This document shows, one piece after another, positions 31,638-63,895 of a DNA stretch of 64,000 bases (positions within the stretch are counted from its first letter, which is position 1; every line of letters starts with the position of its first letter). The position numbers and the translations under genes were made by a program. The stretch is from Patescibacteria group bacterium (GTDB lineage: Bacteria; Patescibacteriota; WWE3; UBA101185; UBA10185). Under the pieces are notes generated by a model. The model was not told the DNA's origin. It searched no databases and saw nothing but the letters and a program-made list of their open reading frames with translations. Location of the stretch: contig JAHJEV010000001.1 in assembly GCA_018825365.1 (NCBI GenBank), positions 57,601 through 121,600 of the forward strand, given 5' to 3'.

Positions 31638-32573
31638 ATGGCAAGGCACGTTCTCCAGTCAGAACTTTGGGAAAAGTTTAAAAACAGCTACGGAACTCCC
31701 GCAGTGAGAGTAGGAAATGTCTTGTATACCAAACACAAAATACCATTTTCCTCTGACTTTTATGCGTATTCACCCCGAGTAAATCCTTTTGATATAGATT
31801 TTGATAGAGTTAAGGCTTCTTTGGAGGAAAACTCCTGCGTTGCAATTCATTTTGATGTTCCGAATGTTACAAAAGATAGCTCTGATTCGGAAAGAGCAAT
31901 CAATATTTTTAAAGATAGGTGCTCACCGTCTACAAGGGACGAATTTGCGAAGGGAAATTTTCTTTTAGATCTAACTAGGCCAGAGGAAGAGCTGTTGAAT
32001 AACATGCATAAGAAACACAGGTACAACGTTAAGTATGCACAGGGAAAGGGCGTGGTTGTAAGACAAAGCACGGATGACGCGGATTTTGATATTTTCTACA
32101 ATCTCTACTCCGAAACGGGTGGGAGAGCAAAGTTTTTTGCAAGGTCCAAAAACTACATGGAAAAAGCTTGGAGAACGTTTCGTGATGCGGGGTGTGGGCG
32201 TTTTGTAATAGCTGAGTTGGATGGCAAGCCTTTAACGGCTTGGTTGCTCATAAATTATGATAATGTCTTGTATTATCCCTATGGTGGGTCTACCAATGAA
32301 GACAGAAATGTTCAATCAAGCTGCCTGGTTGGATGGGAAGCAATTAAGTTAGGAAAGAAACTTGGATGCACATTGTTTGATATGTGGGGCGCTTCCGAGG
32401 ATATGAGTAATAAAAGTGATCCATATTTTGGATTTTCCCTATTTAAAGAGAAATTCGGCGCGAAACATGTTGTGTATATTCCCTCTTATGACTTTGTACT
32501 TAATGCCTCTGTATATAAGCTATTTACTGCAGCAAACGCTTTTAGATGGAAGCTGTTGAATTTATTGAGATGA
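31638..32573 (+). CDS. FemAB-family (peptidoglycan aminoacyltransferase-like) protein, paralog 1
   Basis: 311 aa. The C-terminal 'FKEKFGA' motif is shared with its downstream paralog. GNAT-like fold is predicted from the pattern alone. The assignment is tentative. Confidence 0.45.
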   Translation: MARHVLQSELWEKFKNSYGTPAVRVGNVLYTKHKIPFSSDFYAYSPRVNPFDIDFDRVKASLEENSCVAIHFDVPNVTKDSSDSERAINIFKDRCSPSTRDEFAKGNFLLDLTRPEEELLNNMHKKHRYNVKYAQGKGVVVRQSTDDADFDIFYNLYSETGGRAKFFARSKNYMEKAWRTFRDAGCGRFVIAELDGKPLTAWLLINYDNVLYYPYGGSTNEDRNVQSSCLVGWEAIKLGKKLGCTLFDMWGASEDMSNKSDPYFGFSLFKEKFGAKHVVYIPSYDFVLNASVYKLFTAANAFRWKLLNLLR

Positions 32574-33472
32574 CGCCAATTCAAGACATCAGGCAAAGTG
32601 AAAAATGGGGCCTTTATTTGAAGTCCTTGGGCTGGGAATATTCAAAAACGTCTTCTGGAATTTTGGTTGTTACTAAAAATATAAAAGTGGGAAGTGTTGC
32701 AAAAGTTCAAAGGCCCCAAAATCTAACCCAAAAAGATTTGAATGAAATAGATCAGATATGCAGAGAAAAGAAGGCACTTTTTGTTAAAATGGAGCCTTTT
32801 TGCTTTGAAGACACTAATCTTTTAGAACAAAACGGATATATTGCAAATACCAACCCTTTATCTCCACCATCAACTTTTTACATCGACCTTACAAAATCTG
32901 AAGAGGATCTTTGGAAAAACATCTCAGAAAGCGGACATTACTCAATAAATAGATCCAAAAGGGAAGAAACTAAAATGAGATTTTACCAAAATCCTCTGAT
33001 CGAAAAGCTTCAGCCTTACTTCAAAATGTGTCAGGAAACAGGGAGGAGAAATCGCTTTTTTATCCAGCCGTACAAGGATTTGCTTTCTAAAGTAAAGGTA
33101 TTCGGAAAAGACTCACACCTAATTTTGGCATACGATAAAAACGGAAATTTATTAAGCGGTAAGTTTTACTTGTGCCACAAAGATATGGTTTTGTATTCAA
33201 CCGGTGGCACATCTGCCTTAGGGAGGAAAGGTAAGGCGGGATACCAGCTTTTATGGGATTCAATTTTGTATTTTAAAGGTTTGGGGTACAAAGTTTTTGA
33301 CTTGGAGGGGAGAAGTGACGATAGATTTAAAGAAATTTCAAAAAACTGGGCCGGGTTTACTCACTTCAAAGAGAAGTTTGGTGCGGAAGTTATCGAATTT
33401 CCATATCCCTATAACAAATACTTTAGTCTGATTATGAAATTGATTGATAAGTTTTTTAAGATGCCTGTTTAA
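32546..33472 (+). CDS. FemAB-family (peptidoglycan aminoacyltransferase-like) protein, paralog 2
   Basis: 308 aa. Same architecture and the same 'FKEKFGA' motif as the upstream gene. Tandem duplicates. Confidence 0.45.
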   Translation: MEAVEFIEMTPIQDIRQSEKWGLYLKSLGWEYSKTSSGILVVTKNIKVGSVAKVQRPQNLTQKDLNEIDQICREKKALFVKMEPFCFEDTNLLEQNGYIANTNPLSPPSTFYIDLTKSEEDLWKNISESGHYSINRSKREETKMRFYQNPLIEKLQPYFKMCQETGRRNRFFIQPYKDLLSKVKVFGKDSHLILAYDKNGNLLSGKFYLCHKDMVLYSTGGTSALGRKGKAGYQLLWDSILYFKGLGYKVFDLEGRSDDRFKEISKNWAGFTHFKEKFGAEVIEFPYPYNKYFSLIMKLIDKFFKMPV

Positions 33473-58204: not shown

Positions 58205-60598
58205 TTAATTATTCGTTTCGAATCTAGAGCCTATAACTTTAATGGTTTTTGTAATTTTTCCCTGGGTGTTTACACGGATAACATAGTTTTTGGTATCTTC
58301 CATATTTCCGTTTATGTCCTGTGACTTATACAAAAAGTCAGTAACACCTTCTTTTTGGATTAAAATTGGTTCTTTATATAATTCCCATGTTTCTCCATCG
58401 TCGATTGAATAAAAAATACCTTCAATATCAGTGCTTTCCTCGTTGTCACAAGATAGATTAATTAAAGGGTATTCTACAAACCAGCCGTTTAATTGGTCTC
58501 CTTGAACTAAAATAACGGTTTCAGGTGGTAAGATATCTGCTTTTTCTGCAAATGCTGCAAACTTGCTAAAGTGATTGGTATATGAGGTAAGGGTATTAGT
58601 AACAGTATCAAAGGTGCTTTCTAAAGATTCCCATAAACCTGAGTTTTGATTCCAATAATACAGTTTTATAGTGCTAGTAATTACGTTGCTTAGTGACAAA
58701 GGATTTATTTGTATAGATATTTTTATCAAATTATCAAAGTTTGAAATTATGTCTCCGCTTTGGTCGAAAGCTTCCAAAATGAAAGACGTGCTTTCTATAT
58801 ATTTTAAATTTTTTTGAACGCTGTTTAATGTAGGTTGGATATAAGAAACAATTTTTGCTGTAAAGTTTTTCGCTGAATTTTGAAAATTTTCAAAAGAAAC
58901 CTTTTTGTTGTCTAATACCAAGTCGTCGGAATCTTCCGGATTTGAACCCGAACTAATAAAACGAGAATTCTTTCCAATATCGGTTTTCCACAAATACGAA
59001 CTTTCACTTCCTCGATGATTTCCTAATGAATCATTCCAAGTAAAATTTTTCCACGGATCAGAACTTATTAAACTTTGCCACCCGAATGGATCGACTCTTC
59101 CGATAGGGAAGTCGTTTAAGTAATCTCCATCCAATCCCAAATCCCTCAAAATTTCAAAATGAAGATGGGGCCCGCTTGTCTTTCCCGTCATACCCACTTT
59201 TCCTATTTTGTCACCGGCATTTACCCATACTTTGTCATATTTTGTTATTAATTCATCACTTTGTAGATGTTCATATATTGACTGATATCCTTGCGGGTGG
59301 TCTATCTTAATAGTGTTTCCGCATGCACTGCAGTAGTAATAACTGGCATATCCGGAAGCCGGGGCTACTATCTCCGTTCCATATTTTAGAGCAAAATCGG
59401 TTCCGCTGTGGGAGCTATAATAAATGTTAGGTTCTGAGTCTTTGTACCCTAAAAAATTTTGAGTAGTAGTTTTGTCACTTTCCGGTTCAACAAAATACGC
59501 ATAACCTAAAAGAGGGTAACTGTGATCGAAGTACGCAGTAATTTTGTCGATTAATTCCTGATCCCCTTGACTAGTCCAAGGAATGTCAAAAATTGGAAGT
59601 TTGGGAATCGAATCTTCCGGTAGTTGATATCTGTAAACTCCTTCGTATAAGACTGCCGCAAATAAATATGCAGGTTCCGAATAAATCCAATTTATATCTC
59701 TCGTTTTATTAAAGGGATCCGAGATTTCTAAGCCCGTGTTTTCCCAAGTGTTTCCTAGGTTTGAAGTAGAGTAGACAGTATAAGTTTGATTAATCGGATT
59801 TTGTCTGCCAACATAATATTTATTTCTGAAATGCGTGATATTCCCAACCGCATAGTTTCCAAAACTGTCAACTTTATTCCAAGTTGTTCCCAAATCCATT
59901 GATGCGTAAATGCCAGTAGTTGCCGAAGATCCGGCAAATACCTCAGATTCATTTATAGCAAAATAGTACAAGGATTTATTTAATAAAGAGGACATTTCTG
60001 TCCACGTCTCCCCATGATCTACAGATCTGTAAACCGATCTTAAAGTTGCAACAATTGCTAAATTGTCACTTGAGGCCAGTGCGTATATTTTTGTTCCGTC
60101 ACAGGAAATCCCGATTCTCTGAGTCCATGTATCCCCTTTGTCTTTTGAAATCCAAAGCCCGCAATTTTCAGTTCCCAGATATATAGTTTGTGAGTCTGTT
60201 GTAACCTTATTTGTAGAGTACGGCGGACCAATGTAGCTCCAGGTTGCGCCTTTATCCGATGAGACAAAAAGCCCGTTTGTGTTGTTTTGAGTGTAGTAGG
60301 TTGTTGCATATATTTTTCCATCGTAATATTTAATATCCGTGATTCCTCTGCCAGAAAGACCAAGTGTTTGCCAGGTTTGCCCCAGGTCTTTTGATATATA
60401 AAGTGCGTTTTTGGGAGGCGGCACCTCCCAGATATTTGTATTTAATTCCCCGGCAAGGATACCAAAGGGAGTGTTTTCCAAAGAAGTTATTGATTGCGAG
60501 GCTAAACCCGTTTTAATCCAGGAAGCCCCAGTCTTAAAAAGAGAAGAGAAAGTAATTAATATAGCCAAAACAGTTAGATATTTTAAATATTGTTTCAC
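58205..60598 (-). CDS. Secreted BNR/Asp-box beta-propeller fused to an M23 (LytM-type) metallopeptidase
   Basis: Signal peptide. At least six Asp-box repeats (SKDLGQTW, SSDKGATW, SKDKGDTW, SVDHGETW, SMDLGTTW, STSNLGNTW). The M23 domain has 'HSGTDFA' (HxxxD) and 'GPHLHFEI' (HxH). Then a roughly 300-aa C-terminal domain. Confidence 0.7.
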   Translation of the reverse strand: MKQYLKYLTVLAILITFSSLFKTGASWIKTGLASQSITSLENTPFGILAGELNTNIWEVPPPKNALYISKDLGQTWQTLGLSGRGITDIKYYDGKIYATTYYTQNNTNGLFVSSDKGATWSYIGPPYSTNKVTTDSQTIYLGTENCGLWISKDKGDTWTQRIGISCDGTKIYALASSDNLAIVATLRSVYRSVDHGETWTEMSSLLNKSLYYFAINESEVFAGSSATTGIYASMDLGTTWNKVDSFGNYAVGNITHFRNKYYVGRQNPINQTYTVYSTSNLGNTWENTGLEISDPFNKTRDINWIYSEPAYLFAAVLYEGVYRYQLPEDSIPKLPIFDIPWTSQGDQELIDKITAYFDHSYPLLGYAYFVEPESDKTTTQNFLGYKDSEPNIYYSSHSGTDFALKYGTEIVAPASGYASYYYCSACGNTIKIDHPQGYQSIYEHLQSDELITKYDKVWVNAGDKIGKVGMTGKTSGPHLHFEILRDLGLDGDYLNDFPIGRVDPFGWQSLISSDPWKNFTWNDSLGNHRGSESSYLWKTDIGKNSRFISSGSNPEDSDDLVLDNKKVSFENFQNSAKNFTAKIVSYIQPTLNSVQKNLKYIESTSFILEAFDQSGDIISNFDNLIKISIQINPLSLSNVITSTIKLYYWNQNSGLWESLESTFDTVTNTLTSYTNHFSKFAAFAEKADILPPETVILVQGDQLNGWFVEYPLINLSCDNEESTDIEGIFYSIDDGETWELYKEPILIQKEGVTDFLYKSQDINGNMEDTKNYVIRVNTQGKITKTIKVIGSRFETNN

Positions 60599-60676
60599 TA
60601 TTTTTTAATATTCTTTATCACAGACTTATTCAATTAAGGAAACTCTATTTTCCGTAGAGTGTAGTAAAATACCCCT

Positions 60677-61999
60677 GTGAGTAATTTGATTGAGCAAATA
60701 AAAATACAAAACCCAGATCTTAAAATCTCTGAAATTGAGGGACTCCTATTTATATTAAGAAACGAACCCGAAATCTCAAACAACGCTTTAATCAGAAAAT
60801 CAGGGCTACCTAAAGAAACACTAAAGTTATTTAAAAAATCCATATCCGATTATTTAGAAAACAGCGGAGAAGATGAAGTAACCTTAAACAAAACGGGAAA
60901 AGAGGTGCTCTCTGGGATAGAGTTGCCCCCTTATAAATGGACTTTATATCCATCTGATGAGTTAACCTTGTCATATAATAAGGTGTTGGAAATAAGGAAT
61001 AAATATGACATAGTGGCCAAAAGAGAATACGACCAATTTCTTGCTACGCCTGAAACTACTTACAATAAGGCTCGGGTTGCCATTGACAAGGGTGTGGTCC
61101 AGGGAAAGAACATTGCGTTTATCGGAGACGATGATTTAGTTTCTTTGGCACTTGCTTCAGTTTGTAGTTCTTATAAAAGTATTACAGTTTTTGATATTGA
61201 TGGGGATCTTCTATCCAAAGTAGAGACAGGAGCAAAGGATTTAAATTTTAAAAATCTATTTACTGCTAAATATGATGTTAGAAAAGAGTTAAATCAAAAA
61301 TATTTGGGAAGATTCGATACTGTTATCTTTGACCCACCCTATACGAAGAGTGGGGTAACGTTATTTTTGCAAAGGGCCGTGGAATTGCTTGGGAAAGTTG
61401 GGGGATTTGAAGGTAAGTATATTTTCATGTACTACGGAAACAGTTTTAAGTCTCCGGAAAAAACTCTAAAAATACAGGAAATTGTGAATAGATTTAATCT
61501 TGTTATCGAGGATAAGATAAATAAATTTGCACAGTATGAAGGTGCGGAGTCTGTTGGAAGCTCAAGTTCTTTGTATGTTTTGAAAGCCGACAAGTTTACC
61601 CACCCAGTTGATATCACGTTTGATTCCAAGAACATTTATACATACGAAAAGCAGGAAGATGAGAAGTTTCCTTTTGTAGATCATGTCGTTCTTAAGGTTC
61701 ATGACGTAGCTTCGGATCTTTTAATATCAAAAGGAAGGTTAATGGGGTCGATGGAGAAACTATGTAAGATGCATAGGTTTAAGGTCGTAAGCAAAGAAAT
61801 TTCAGTATTTGCCGGAGGTGGCATGACAGCAACGTTTGTTTTAGCAAACTCCAATTTGGTTGTTCATACATGGCCGGAGTTTAAAGCTTTACATATAGAT
61901 TTGATCACATGCTCACCAATATTTAAAAAGGAAGTGTTAAGAGAAAGTGTTTGTGAGGTCTTTGGTACTGATAGGGTTGAGTATCTATATATAGAGTAG
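60677..61999 (+). CDS. Three-domain fusion: wHTH-like N-terminus + class-I SAM-dependent transferase-like domain (DPPY) + pyruvoyl-type S-adenosylmethionine decarboxylase-like domain
   Basis: Residues ~140-230 have 'IAFIGDDDLVSL', 'ITVFDIDGD' and 'FDTVIFDPPY' (motifs I, II, IV of amino-group-directed MTases/aminopropyltransferases). Residues ~330-439 have 'VFAGGGMTATFVLANSNLVVHTWPEFKALHIDLITCSPIF'. This matches SpeH-type AdoMetDC ('GvsgvvlLaESHisiHTWPE...DvftCg'), except that E-S is replaced by N-S. Confidence 0.65.
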   Translation: MSNLIEQIKIQNPDLKISEIEGLLFILRNEPEISNNALIRKSGLPKETLKLFKKSISDYLENSGEDEVTLNKTGKEVLSGIELPPYKWTLYPSDELTLSYNKVLEIRNKYDIVAKREYDQFLATPETTYNKARVAIDKGVVQGKNIAFIGDDDLVSLALASVCSSYKSITVFDIDGDLLSKVETGAKDLNFKNLFTAKYDVRKELNQKYLGRFDTVIFDPPYTKSGVTLFLQRAVELLGKVGGFEGKYIFMYYGNSFKSPEKTLKIQEIVNRFNLVIEDKINKFAQYEGAESVGSSSSLYVLKADKFTHPVDITFDSKNIYTYEKQEDEKFPFVDHVVLKVHDVASDLLISKGRLMGSMEKLCKMHRFKVVSKEISVFAGGGMTATFVLANSNLVVHTWPEFKALHIDLITCSPIFKKEVLRESVCEVFGTDRVEYLYIE

Positions 62000-62067: not shown

Positions 62068-62221
62068 TTTAATGCTGAAGTACTATTCAGCTCTTGTACA
62101 TTGAAAATTTCCTTTGAGATTTTGAGTTTTCAAGATCATTAAGGCGAAAAGAACGGGTGCTTTGATGAATATCCCCTAACGCATTTGTGGATATTCATTA
62201 AAAGTAATTTAGCTTTTTATT

Positions 62222-63895
<1,674 letters not shown>

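Follow-up and report, generated by a model that had tools for sequence, protein, structure and literature searches.

Introduction

BpsA (EC 2.5.1.128), with solved structures from Thermococcus kodakarensis (5xnc) and Thermus thermophilus (6j27), is an aminopropyltransferase with a three-part fold that belongs to the Pfam family PF01861 and converts spermidine into N4-bis(aminopropyl)spermidine with ping-pong kinetics. Its GDDD motif positions the aminopropyl group of decarboxylated S-adenosylmethionine (dcSAM), and a 2026 review describes BpsA and the branched-chain polyamines as confined to thermophiles (PMC12979288). The canonical thermophile protein is about 350 aa long and ends with an acidic C-terminal lid. 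The class-1b (SpeH-type) adenosylmethionine decarboxylase (AdoMetDC), represented by T. maritima 1tlu and 1vr7 and A. aeolicus 2iii (PF02675, TIGR03330), is a small pyruvoyl enzyme, in which the Glu of the H-x-(W/Y)-P-E motif binds ribose (PMC1282579) and the His of the HTWPE-type motif is required for processing (PMC1282579, PMC10407285).

Fusions of AdoMetDC with SpeE-type aminopropyltransferases are known, for example in Ca. Pelagibacter ubique, and both activities have been demonstrated for the Pelagibacter fusion proteins (Li et al. 2024, PMC11107197). SpeDC and SpeDA, the ornithine and arginine decarboxylases derived from SpeD, which have the same small pyruvoyl SpeD fold and may carry a residue other than Glu before the processing Ser (T-S in SpeDC), occur in the candidate phyla radiation, sometimes in fusions, and go together with genes for agmatinase or homospermidine synthase (Li et al. 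2023, PMC10407285).

Here we describe a gene of a tiny, uncultured Patescibacteria group bacterium, lying in a stretch of 64,000 nucleotides (the window), in which a BpsA-like transferase part is joined to an AdoMetDC-like part. No description of such a BpsA and AdoMetDC fusion was found in open-access papers. We think it reasonably likely that the gene encodes a self-processing bifunctional enzyme that both makes dcSAM and transfers its aminopropyl group.

The fusion gene and its product

The whole gene occupies positions 60677..61999 of the plus strand, on which all the features given below also lie, and it is a single open reading frame of 440 aa with a GTG start and a TAG stop that contains both domains. 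The GTG start at 60677 is supported by the homologues, which align across residues 1-440. Identical proteins are present at NCBI (MBU0534703.1 and others); the name of MBU0534703.1 is 'bis-aminopropyl spermidine synthase family protein [Patescibacteria group bacterium]', while a homologous fusion of Xenorhabdus is named 'adenosylmethionine decarboxylase', and the current database names of the fusions cover only one of the two activities. The AlphaFold model of the 440-aa protein (pLDDT 88.9, pTM 0.80) matches the whole of Thermococcus BpsA and also Thermotoga AdoMetDC.

A sequence-only reading of this DNA had proposed that a transferase-like domain is fused here to an AdoMetDC-like one of the SpeH type, and had offered BpsA/DUF43 enzymes as a candidate to compare with the transferase. 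Both proposals hold: PF01861 and PF02675 are found by Pfam in the same protein, both far above their cut-offs, and the BpsA match extends to the solved structures and to nearly the whole fold. The nucleotide positions that it gave for the DPPY and Asn-Ser motifs are also right, and the HTWPE motif and the distal Cys that it mentioned are present.

The BpsA-like transferase

The BpsA_C (PF01861/DUF43) Rossmann-fold aminopropyltransferase domain lies at 61013..61594 (aa 113-306; Pfam E=4.7e-35, 121.4 bits, cut-off 27). The solved BpsA structures 5xnc and 2qm3 are matched by sequence with E ~1e-20, and with 4.6e-35 when the family profile is used; the family-profile alignment to P. furiosus 2qm3 begins at profile position 17. 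In the Foldseek comparison with Thermococcus kodakarensis BpsA (5xnc_B) the alignment covers 347 columns of the 354-residue target (E=2.5e-22), and the overall fold of BpsA is kept, with an N-terminal domain, the Rossmann domain and a C-terminal segment. The helical, winged-helix-like domain at 60677..61006 (aa 1-110) is identified by the profile alignment and by Foldseek as the equivalent of the BpsA N-terminal domain; Pfam HTH_24 matches it weakly in the fusion protein and above threshold in the Asgard and Bathyarchaeota homologues. No Spermine_synth domain (PF01564) was detected in the fusion protein by Pfam.

Two motifs are present in all 120 of the 120 homologues. The GDDD motif (G150-D153, 61124..61135) is aligned to G157-D160 of Tk-BpsA, and DPPY (D219-Y222, 61331..61342) is placed so that D219 falls on Asp225, the acceptor-activating residue of Tk-BpsA. 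GDDD is the stronger aminopropyltransferase signature of the two. It had not been mentioned in the sequence-only reading. A further acceptor-activating residue, Tyr290 of Tk-BpsA, is conserved as Y287. In canonical BpsA, in contrast, the loop reads DPPE, and Glu259 and Tyr316 of the Thermococcus enzyme fall in gaps of the alignment for every DPPY-type sequence. Because these two residues have no counterpart and DPPE is replaced by DPPY, the acceptor of the fusion protein may be other than the N4 of spermidine.

The catalytic domain is followed by a flexible linker (61592..61678, aa 306-334), delimited by pLDDT and by the alignments, in which an I-Y-T-(F/Y)-E ... E-E-K-F-P-F motif is conserved and whose blocks have the lowest pLDDT of the model (63-80). 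In the alignment the linker lies opposite the acidic lid with which canonical BpsA ends, (L/I)-Y-N-D-E-E; a Tyr-containing acidic segment comes after the catalytic domain in both proteins. The sequence I-Y-T-Y-E-K-Q-E-D-E-K is, however, poorer in acidic residues than the (D/E)-L-Y-N-D-E-E-S-S-T-T of BpsA, and it runs on into the fused domain instead of ending the protein.

A conventional RNA/DNA methyltransferase was considered for the N-terminal part and rejected. Such a match had been named in advance as evidence against an aminopropylation enzyme, and the corresponding families all score below their Pfam cut-offs (Cons_hypoth95 21 against 24, N6-adenineMlase 19 against 23.2, RsmB-F 15.8 against 27), with the NCBIfam matches likewise sub-threshold. 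The glycine-rich SAM motif I of the (D/N)PP(Y/F) methyltransferases is not seen either; the motif I found here is the GDDD of BpsA.

The AdoMetDC-like domain and its predicted processing site

The class-1b AdoMetDC-like domain occupies 61679..61996 (aa 335-440; Pfam AdoMet_dc E=5.6e-15), with the PF02675 match covering residues 336-438 and scoring 56 bits, where the cut-off is 25. The profile match to 1tlu (E=3.8e-9) extends over residues 7-107, and the Foldseek superposition on 1vr7, the T. maritima AdoMetDC, gives a TM of 0.80 and an rmsd of 2.0 A. The score against the NCBIfam equivalog TIGR03330 (44.9 bits) remains below the cut-off of 75.65.

The predicted serinolysis site N391|S392 (61847..61852) is aligned to E62-S63 of T. 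maritima and stands in the local sequence V-L-A-N-S-N-L-V-V-H-T-W-P-E. The HTWPE motif (H397-E401), whose Glu aligns with the one that binds ribose in AdoMetDC, is found at 61865..61879, and C412 (61910..61912) corresponds to Cys83, which donates the catalytic proton in the T. maritima enzyme; the distance from S392 to C412 (S+20) is the same as that between S63 and C83. Ser392, His397, Trp399, Glu401 and Cys412 are invariant among 68 aligned relatives and P400 is conserved in at least 90%. G382 is invariant as well, so that the 68 sequences retain the Gly/Ser/His/Cys set which Li et al. (2023, PMC10407285) use as a criterion for processing and catalysis.

Asn-Ser is less unusual than the sequence-only reading supposed. 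That reading placed the site at the right nucleotides but one residue too early (N390-S391), and its statement that the site is normally Glu-Ser proves too strong: among the 116 stand-alone SpeH-like representatives nearest to the domain, 62 have E before the Ser, 20 have Q, 12 S, 11 T and 5 N, and the aligned relatives show N, S, T, Q, K or A there. E. coli SpeD is cleaved at Lys-Ser. With the Ser invariant and the residue before it variable both in the relatives and in the stand-alone SpeH-like proteins, the alignments argue that Asn-Ser is no defect.

Several other positions distinguish the clade from the class-1b enzymes with which it shares the fold, the Ser/His/Cys spacing and HTWPE. The N-S-N of the fusion domain replaces E-S-H, N393 being invariant in place of the His. 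K340 (61694..61696) is an invariant Lys specific to the clade, at a position taken in most SpeH-type proteins by Glu or Asp (Glu11 in T. maritima), and His366 and His406 are additional invariant residues. The proline of the F-x-P-x-G segment is replaced by Gly (G380) in the fusion protein, which keeps the Phe and the last Gly of the segment, and this position varies between P, G, K and N within the fusion clade. The mean pairwise identity is 52.5% for the AdoMetDC-like domain and 55.7% for the transferase domain; by this measure the two are equally conserved. A SpeDC-type ornithine decarboxylase was rejected as an identification of the domain, which lacks the diagnostic Gln, Thr, Phe (of GHFAN) and Tyr of SpeDC and retains HTWPE.

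Recurrence of the pairing and gene neighbourhood

Among 80 GTDB species-representative genomes with a DPPY-type BpsA-like gene, an AdoMetDC-like partner was fused to it in 26, adjacent in 40 (27 on the same strand and 13 divergent) and located within ~1 kb in 2. The two parts are therefore linked in 68 of the 80 genomes, which belong to many phyla and include Patescibacteria, Actinomycetota, Chloroflexota, Bathyarchaeia, Asgard archaea and Xenorhabdus, and their pairing is not accidental. A rough NJ tree suggests that the fusion may have arisen independently at least four times. None of the canonical thermophile BpsA proteins was fused among the 120 listed, the fusion protein falling in a separate clade, and no adjacent AdoMetDC gene was present at the two canonical bpsA loci examined. 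BpsA-type enzymes are thus not limited to heat-loving organisms, and the same parts are paired in many microbes that are not heat-loving; the G+C content of the 16S rRNA of our Patescibacteria host (51%) is not thermophile-like.

The partner found in Xenorhabdus is a fully canonical AdoMetDC domain (A-E-S-H, FPGS, HWPE; AdoMet_dc E=2.4e-35), and this fusion adjoins a PKS, while the pair of Actinomycetota and Chloroflexia adjoins a PP-binding carrier protein. At archaeal, actinobacterial and Chloroflexia loci GNAT acetyltransferases occur as fusions or as neighbours, which agrees with a small-amine product.

In the host lineage the gene is always located directly upstream of the 16S rRNA gene. 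The flanking genes are those of an M23 peptidase, a glycosyltransferase, small proteins of no known function and the rRNA operon, among which no functional clue was found in this Patescibacteria lineage. In the window, ~0-46 kb and 50.7-64 kb were annotated; these parts contain nothing but housekeeping genes, and no other polyamine gene was found in them or beside the relatives, whose neighbourhoods covered stretches of at most ~20 kb. Exact-protein look-ups of two genes of the window returned no match.

Discussion

The sequence-only reading had suggested a self-contained aminopropylation enzyme, and the linkage of the two parts in 68 of the 80 genomes lends independent support to this idea of an aminopropyltransferase that would make its own dcSAM. 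We propose that the SpeH-type domain would cleave itself between N391 and S392 with conversion of S392 into the pyruvoyl cofactor. The predicted products are chains of residues 1-391 (44.2 kDa) and 392-440 (5.8 kDa), and since the domain is fused to the C-terminus of the transferase, the large chain would, unlike that of a class-1b AdoMetDC, still carry the transferase after cleavage, with the small alpha chain remaining packed against it in the beta-sandwich. The pyruvoyl enzyme would decarboxylate S-adenosylmethionine to dcSAM, which would be handed over within one complex to the BpsA-like domain and bound there via GDDD, the use of dcSAM being presumably common to BpsA and the fusion protein. 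An amine acceptor activated by D219 of the DPPY motif and by Y287 would then receive the aminopropyl group, methylthioadenosine would be released, and the IYTxE/EEKFPF linker may act as the counterpart of the flexible acidic lid of BpsA. By homology the likeliest acceptor would be a small polyamine-type amine such as spermidine, putrescine, agmatine or a similar compound, and the product may be linear or branched. The AdoMetDC-SpeE fusions offer an analogy to the proposed union of dcSAM-making and dcSAM-using parts in one polypeptide, but they place the AdoMetDC first and use a transferase of the SpeE/spermidine-synthase family, whereas in the present protein a BpsA/DUF43-type transferase comes first and the AdoMetDC-like domain last.

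The enzyme may alternatively be bifunctional as proposed but act on a macromolecule (at an exocyclic or an amide amino group in RNA, DNA or protein) or on a carrier-bound or natural-product intermediate, a reading that we regard as unlikely, though it accounts for several features of the protein. DPPY corresponds to the (D/N)PP(Y/F) motif of amino-group methyltransferases, METTL5 and RsmD-type enzymes are the next-best structural and sequence neighbours, and the acceptor residues E259 and Y316 of BpsA have no counterpart; the winged-helix-like N-terminal domain is conserved too, but canonical BpsA shares this domain, has a DPPx loop too and nevertheless acts on polyamines, and the methyltransferase families score below their cut-offs. 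The PKS of Xenorhabdus and the PP-binding carrier of the Actinomycetota and Chloroflexia pair would suit a natural-product acceptor, the associated GNATs a small amine. That the gene directly precedes the 16S rRNA gene throughout the lineage also speaks for this reading, but may reflect no more than lineage synteny. We know of no BpsA relative that carries out dcSAM-dependent aminopropylation of a nucleic acid or a protein.

It is still less probable that the AdoMetDC-like domain has been neofunctionalised in the manner of SpeDA and SpeDC and decarboxylates arginine, ornithine or another amino acid, in which case it would supply the amine acceptor and dcSAM would come from elsewhere. The absence from the clade of the F-x-P-x-G proline and of the acid equivalent to Glu11 of T. 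maritima, together with N-S-N in place of E-S-H, is compatible with such a change. In the study of the Sulfolobus arginine decarboxylase by Giles and Graham in 2008, the specificity determinants were reportedly placed in the beta chain. Neofunctionalisation is widespread and known from the candidate phyla radiation, and true AdoMetDC is separated from arginine decarboxylases by a single proline of unspecified position (Li et al., PMC10407285). The F-x-P-x-G position, however, is no fixed switch, since it varies within the fusion clade itself. The HTWPE motif is kept with its Pro and ribose-binding Glu, the ornithine decarboxylase diagnostics are absent, the partners found in other phyla resemble canonical AdoMetDC, and neither the 80 loci nor the window showed a second SpeH-like gene that could provide dcSAM. 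Whereas SpeDC and SpeDA are associated with agmatinase or homospermidine synthase genes, the domain described here is consistently found with a dcSAM-type transferase.

That the domain is a non-cleaving, non-catalytic SAM- or dcSAM-binding, regulatory or oligomerisation module serving a transferase that uses dcSAM or SAM made elsewhere, an option that the sequence-only reading had kept beside its main proposal, is very improbable, for although degenerate SpeD-like domains that do not process exist (for example in a SpeD-SpeDC fusion of Victivallis and in eukaryotic AdoMetDC, whose C-terminal half is of this kind; PMC10407285) and the site departs from the textbook Glu-Ser-His, such domains lose Ser, His and Cys, all of which are invariant here down to 46% identity in a domain as constrained as the transferase.

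Returning to the self-processing bifunctional enzyme, our data indicate a distinct BpsA-like subfamily that is linked physically to an AdoMetDC of its own in many lineages that are not thermophilic, among them the minimal-genome Patescibacteria, the Asgard and Bathyarchaeia archaea, Actinomycetota and the cultured Xenorhabdus. The fusion provides a natural case of an AdoMetDC whose processing would take place at Asn-Ser-Asn, and if the enzymes are active, the cultured Xenorhabdus homologue beside the PKS (X. budapestensis, WP_209027226.1) gives a ready experimental handle. A more speculative, and in our opinion doubtful, extension is that the pair is a portable cassette, used in Patescibacteria on a macromolecular or otherwise unusual amino group in place of a classical polyamine (for example on a base of RNA or DNA, a protein or a part of the cell envelope) or else for the synthesis of branched polyamines in cold-living ultra-small bacteria; if this were true, either a dcSAM-based modification chemistry or a polyamine class would be new outside thermophiles. 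Should the fusion enzymes prove active, aminopropylation with dcSAM via the BpsA fold would be far commoner than has been described, and ultra-small symbiotic bacteria would be investing, with one gene, in the synthesis of an aminopropylated product from SAM.

Domain organisation of the fusion protein

The fusion gene (60677..61999, forward strand) is a single ORF of 440 aa with a GTG start, which appears to be correct since relatives of the same length align with it over residues 1–440. Pfam recognises BpsA_C (PF01861, formerly DUF43) at residues 113–306 (E = 4.7e-35, 121 bits against a cut-off of 27) and AdoMet_dc (PF02675) at residues 336–438 (E = 5.6e-15, 56 bits against a cut-off of 25), the latter domain falling under the NCBIfam AdoMetDC equivalog cut-off. 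Sequence comparison matches the N-terminal two-thirds to two branched-chain polyamine synthases of solved structure, that of Thermococcus kodakarensis (5xnc) and that of Pyrococcus furiosus (2qm3), with E~1e-20; a family profile lowers this to E = 4.6e-35, and the alignment extends into the N-terminal domain. For the C-terminal 110 residues, the matches are the AdoMetDCs of Thermotoga maritima and Aquifex aeolicus. With 68 relatives as input, AlphaFold2 gave a confident model (mean pLDDT 88.9, pTM 0.80), which is soft only at the linker 306–334. In Foldseek searches of the PDB, BpsA ranks first (E = 2.5e-22, ~347 aligned columns, 354-residue chain), and T. maritima AdoMetDC is recovered with a TM of 0.80 and an rmsd of 2.0 Å over 107 columns. 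The BpsA/DUF43-type match that the sequence-only reading had put forward as a candidate is thus borne out by Pfam, by solved-structure sequences and by Foldseek alike. A conventional RNA/DNA methyltransferase, which that reading had named among the results that would refute it, was rejected because the Pfam and NCBIfam families concerned score below their cut-offs and RNA methyltransferases such as METTL5 lie far behind BpsA in fold comparison.

The same reading had placed DPPY (nt 61331–61342), the Asn-Ser pair (nt 61847–61852), HTWPE (nt 61865–61879) and the distal Cys (C412, nt 61910–61912) correctly on the forward strand, with residue numbers one too low: the predicted processing site is N391-S392. 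Absent from its account was GDDD (G150–D153, nt 61124–61135, forward strand), the motif that positions dcSAM in BpsA (PMC12979288).

Donor and acceptor sites of the transferase

When 29 canonical BpsA sequences are aligned with the DPPY-type family (BpsA-like proteins with DPPY), GDDD, Asp225 (D219 here) and Tyr290 (Y287 here) are shared, whereas Glu259 and Tyr316 are without counterpart and the canonical DPPE is replaced by DPPY. The donor site is thus BpsA-like and the acceptor site altered. The canonical lid, (D/E)-L-Y-N-D-E-E-S-S-T-T, aligns with a conserved I-Y-T-(F/Y)-E; in canonical BpsA it is C-terminal, whereas in the fusions the segment continues via E-E-K-F-P-F into the decarboxylase. 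Judged by these residues, the fusion protein is not classed as BpsA sensu stricto.

The predicted Asn-Ser processing site

The Asn-Ser pair is indeed present, and it is less of an anomaly than the sequence-only reading held, the −1 position being variable. In 120 full-length relatives (46–88% identical), all of which carry GDDD and DPPY, the Ser is invariant and is preceded by N, S, T, Q, K or A, and by E in none. A search of the C-terminal domain against 1.8 billion representatives gave 597 relatives; of the 116 stand-alone SpeH-sized proteins in the best 150 of these, 62 have E at −1, 20 have Q, 12 S, 11 T and 5 N. E. coli SpeD is cleaved after Lys. In human AdoMetDC the Glu at −1 touches the adenine base (PMC1282579). 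S392, H397, W399, E401, C412 and G382 are invariant in the 68-sequence alignment; S63, H68 and C83 of the T. maritima enzyme are indispensable for both its processing and its catalysis (Li et al. 2023, PMC10407285). Asn-Ser should therefore present no problem for processing.

Recurrence of the transferase–decarboxylase pairing

Each GTDB species was represented by a single genome in a scan whose patterns came from the transferase domain only; it yielded 80 loci (L001–L080), which were sorted with HMMs built for this analysis. The AdoMetDC-like part is fused in the same ORF at 26 loci, adjacent on the same strand and often overlapping at 27, adjacent and divergent at 13 and within ~1 kb at 2; it was not found at 12, several of which end at contig ends. 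Pfam confirms both domains in the fusions of Xenorhabdus indica (501 aa) and Promethearchaeota (473 aa), and in separate overlapping genes of a complete Woesebacteria genome. The partner domain is fully canonical in Xenorhabdus (A-E-S-H, FPGS, HWPE), has Q-S-H in Woesebacteria, Shapirobacteria and Gaiellaceae, and N/S/T/Q-S-N in the clade of the window's protein. A rough neighbour-joining tree, in which canonical thermophile BpsA falls outside the DPPY-type family, suggests that the two genes fused independently in the WWE3-type clade, in Shapirobacteria, in Xenorhabdus and in an Asgard archaeon. Fusion to AdoMetDC occurs in none of the 120 matches listed for canonical BpsA homologues, and no AdoMetDC gene lies within 5 kb of canonical bpsA at the two loci examined (n = 2 only). 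Neither the 80 loci nor any part of the window holds a second SpeH-like gene. That the two parts have fused more than once and otherwise tend to stay adjacent is strong evidence, on comparative grounds, for a joint function, and since BpsA-type enzymes use dcSAM as donor (PMC12979288), the most straightforward interpretation is that this is what the partner makes.

Two further observations concern the partners. At L050, L055, L057, L059, L060 and L074 (Bathyarchaeia/Heimdallarchaeota) the SpeH-like proteins read E-T-H, with Thr replacing the pyruvoyl-precursor Ser, from which the usual chemistry would yield no pyruvoyl group. In WWE3 bacterium RIFOXYD1_FULL_39_9 a fused copy coexists with a distinct, unfused bpsA-like/speH-like pair (L013 and L046), suggesting that the genome has two aminopropylation modules and that their roles differ.

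AdoMetDC fused to SpeE-type aminopropyltransferases is known and characterised (PMC11107197); in the open-access literature we found no description of its joining to a BpsA/DUF43-type transferase, or of the wide spread of such a pairing. NCBI names cover one half each: 'bis-aminopropyl spermidine synthase family protein' for the window's protein and 'adenosylmethionine decarboxylase' for the Xenorhabdus fusion.

Proposed mechanism and its alternatives

The fusion protein is probably a self-cleaving bifunctional enzyme that makes dcSAM and transfers the aminopropyl group to an amine. The proenzyme would cut itself at N391|S392. The predicted products are a 5.8-kDa pyruvoyl chain and a 44.2-kDa chain, the larger one made up of the transferase plus the first half of the sandwich formed by the decarboxylase. 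The pyruvoyl group would decarboxylate SAM with C412 as proton donor, the transferase GDDD would bind dcSAM, and D219 and Y287 would activate the amine acceptor, the aminopropyl group being transferred and MTA released. Work by Bale and colleagues in 2010 is reported to place class-1b AdoMetDC active sites across the dimer interface, and BpsA is oligomeric; the fusion may thus be expected to act as an oligomer.

That the acceptor is something other than a polyamine seems rather unlikely. We consider it doubtful to a greater degree that the decarboxylase has been neofunctionalised and produces the acceptor. In the clade of the window's protein S-N replaces S-H, Lys340 is invariant at a position occupied by Glu or Asp in most relatives (T. 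maritima E11), and His366 and His406 are invariant too. SpeD-derived ornithine decarboxylases are told by Gln, Thr, Phe and Tyr and read G-H-F-A-N, not H-T-W-P-E (Li et al. 2023 and its Fig. S5, PMC10407285); these residues are absent from the fusion protein, so that an ornithine-decarboxylase derivative was rejected. True AdoMetDCs are divided from arginine-decarboxylase derivatives by one proline whose position the text leaves unspecified (Li et al. 2023, PMC10407285). The fusion protein retains the HTWPE proline but has lost that of F-x-P-x-G, which is Gly here and varies P/G/K/N within the clade, and the neofunctionalised reading keeps its small share of probability for this reason. A non-catalytic AdoMetDC-like module is very improbable: within the family the mean pairwise identity of this domain is 52.5%, against 55.7% for the transferase domain, and so similar a degree of conservation speaks against a part that is decaying or has only a structural role.

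Gene neighbourhoods

The surroundings of the gene in other lineages hint that the products are small amines and that secondary metabolism is involved. In Bathyarchaeota (L060, 9581-11239, forward strand) a 553-aa protein joins the BpsA-like part to a GNAT acetyltransferase, and the speH-like gene adjoins. GNAT genes lie beside the pair in Actinomycetota and Chloroflexia (L065, L067, L071, L080), with a PP-binding carrier protein in addition in Chloroflexia L067; a conserved protein of ~350 aa recurs in these lineages, with a weak HAD-like match in L065 only, and such loci look like a small biosynthetic cluster. In the cultured species Xenorhabdus indica (L051, 10001-18552; also L053, L054) the fusion neighbours a fatty-acid desaturase, a saccharopine-dehydrogenase-like gene and a KS-AT-KR-ACP polyketide synthase.

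The neighbourhood of the clade of the window's protein gives no such clue. The order at 58205-61999 and onwards, an M23 peptidase gene with BNR/sortilin-like repeats (reverse strand), the divergent fusion gene and the 16S rRNA gene (both forward), recurs in L001–L008 and is kept in relatives only ~50% identical; it may reflect either lineage synteny or a functional link. The 16S rRNA gene directly downstream (62216-63895, forward strand; RF00177, 1286.9 bits) carries a group I intron near its 3' end (63588-63842; RF00028, 55.1 bits), followed by the canonical terminus GGATCACCTCCTT at 63880-63892. Annotation of the window over ~0-46 kb and 50.7-64 kb found no other polyamine gene. Elsewhere in the window, two tandem FemAB-family genes (31638-33472, forward strand) are preceded by a family-2 glycosyltransferase gene and a KsgA-type rRNA adenine dimethylase gene.

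Organism and significance

An identical protein is on record from Patescibacteria-group MAGs, and close relatives are labelled WWE3 and Saccharibacteria. The G+C content of rRNA correlates with growth temperature; as the 16S exons have 51.4% G+C (the window 39%), the source organism is not a thermophile by this measure. BpsA is phylogenetically confined to thermophiles according to a 2026 review (PMC12979288). The DPPY-type subfamily represents a BpsA fold with its own predicted dcSAM supply that is common outside thermophiles, and its interest lies in its presence in mesophiles and minimal-genome bacteria.
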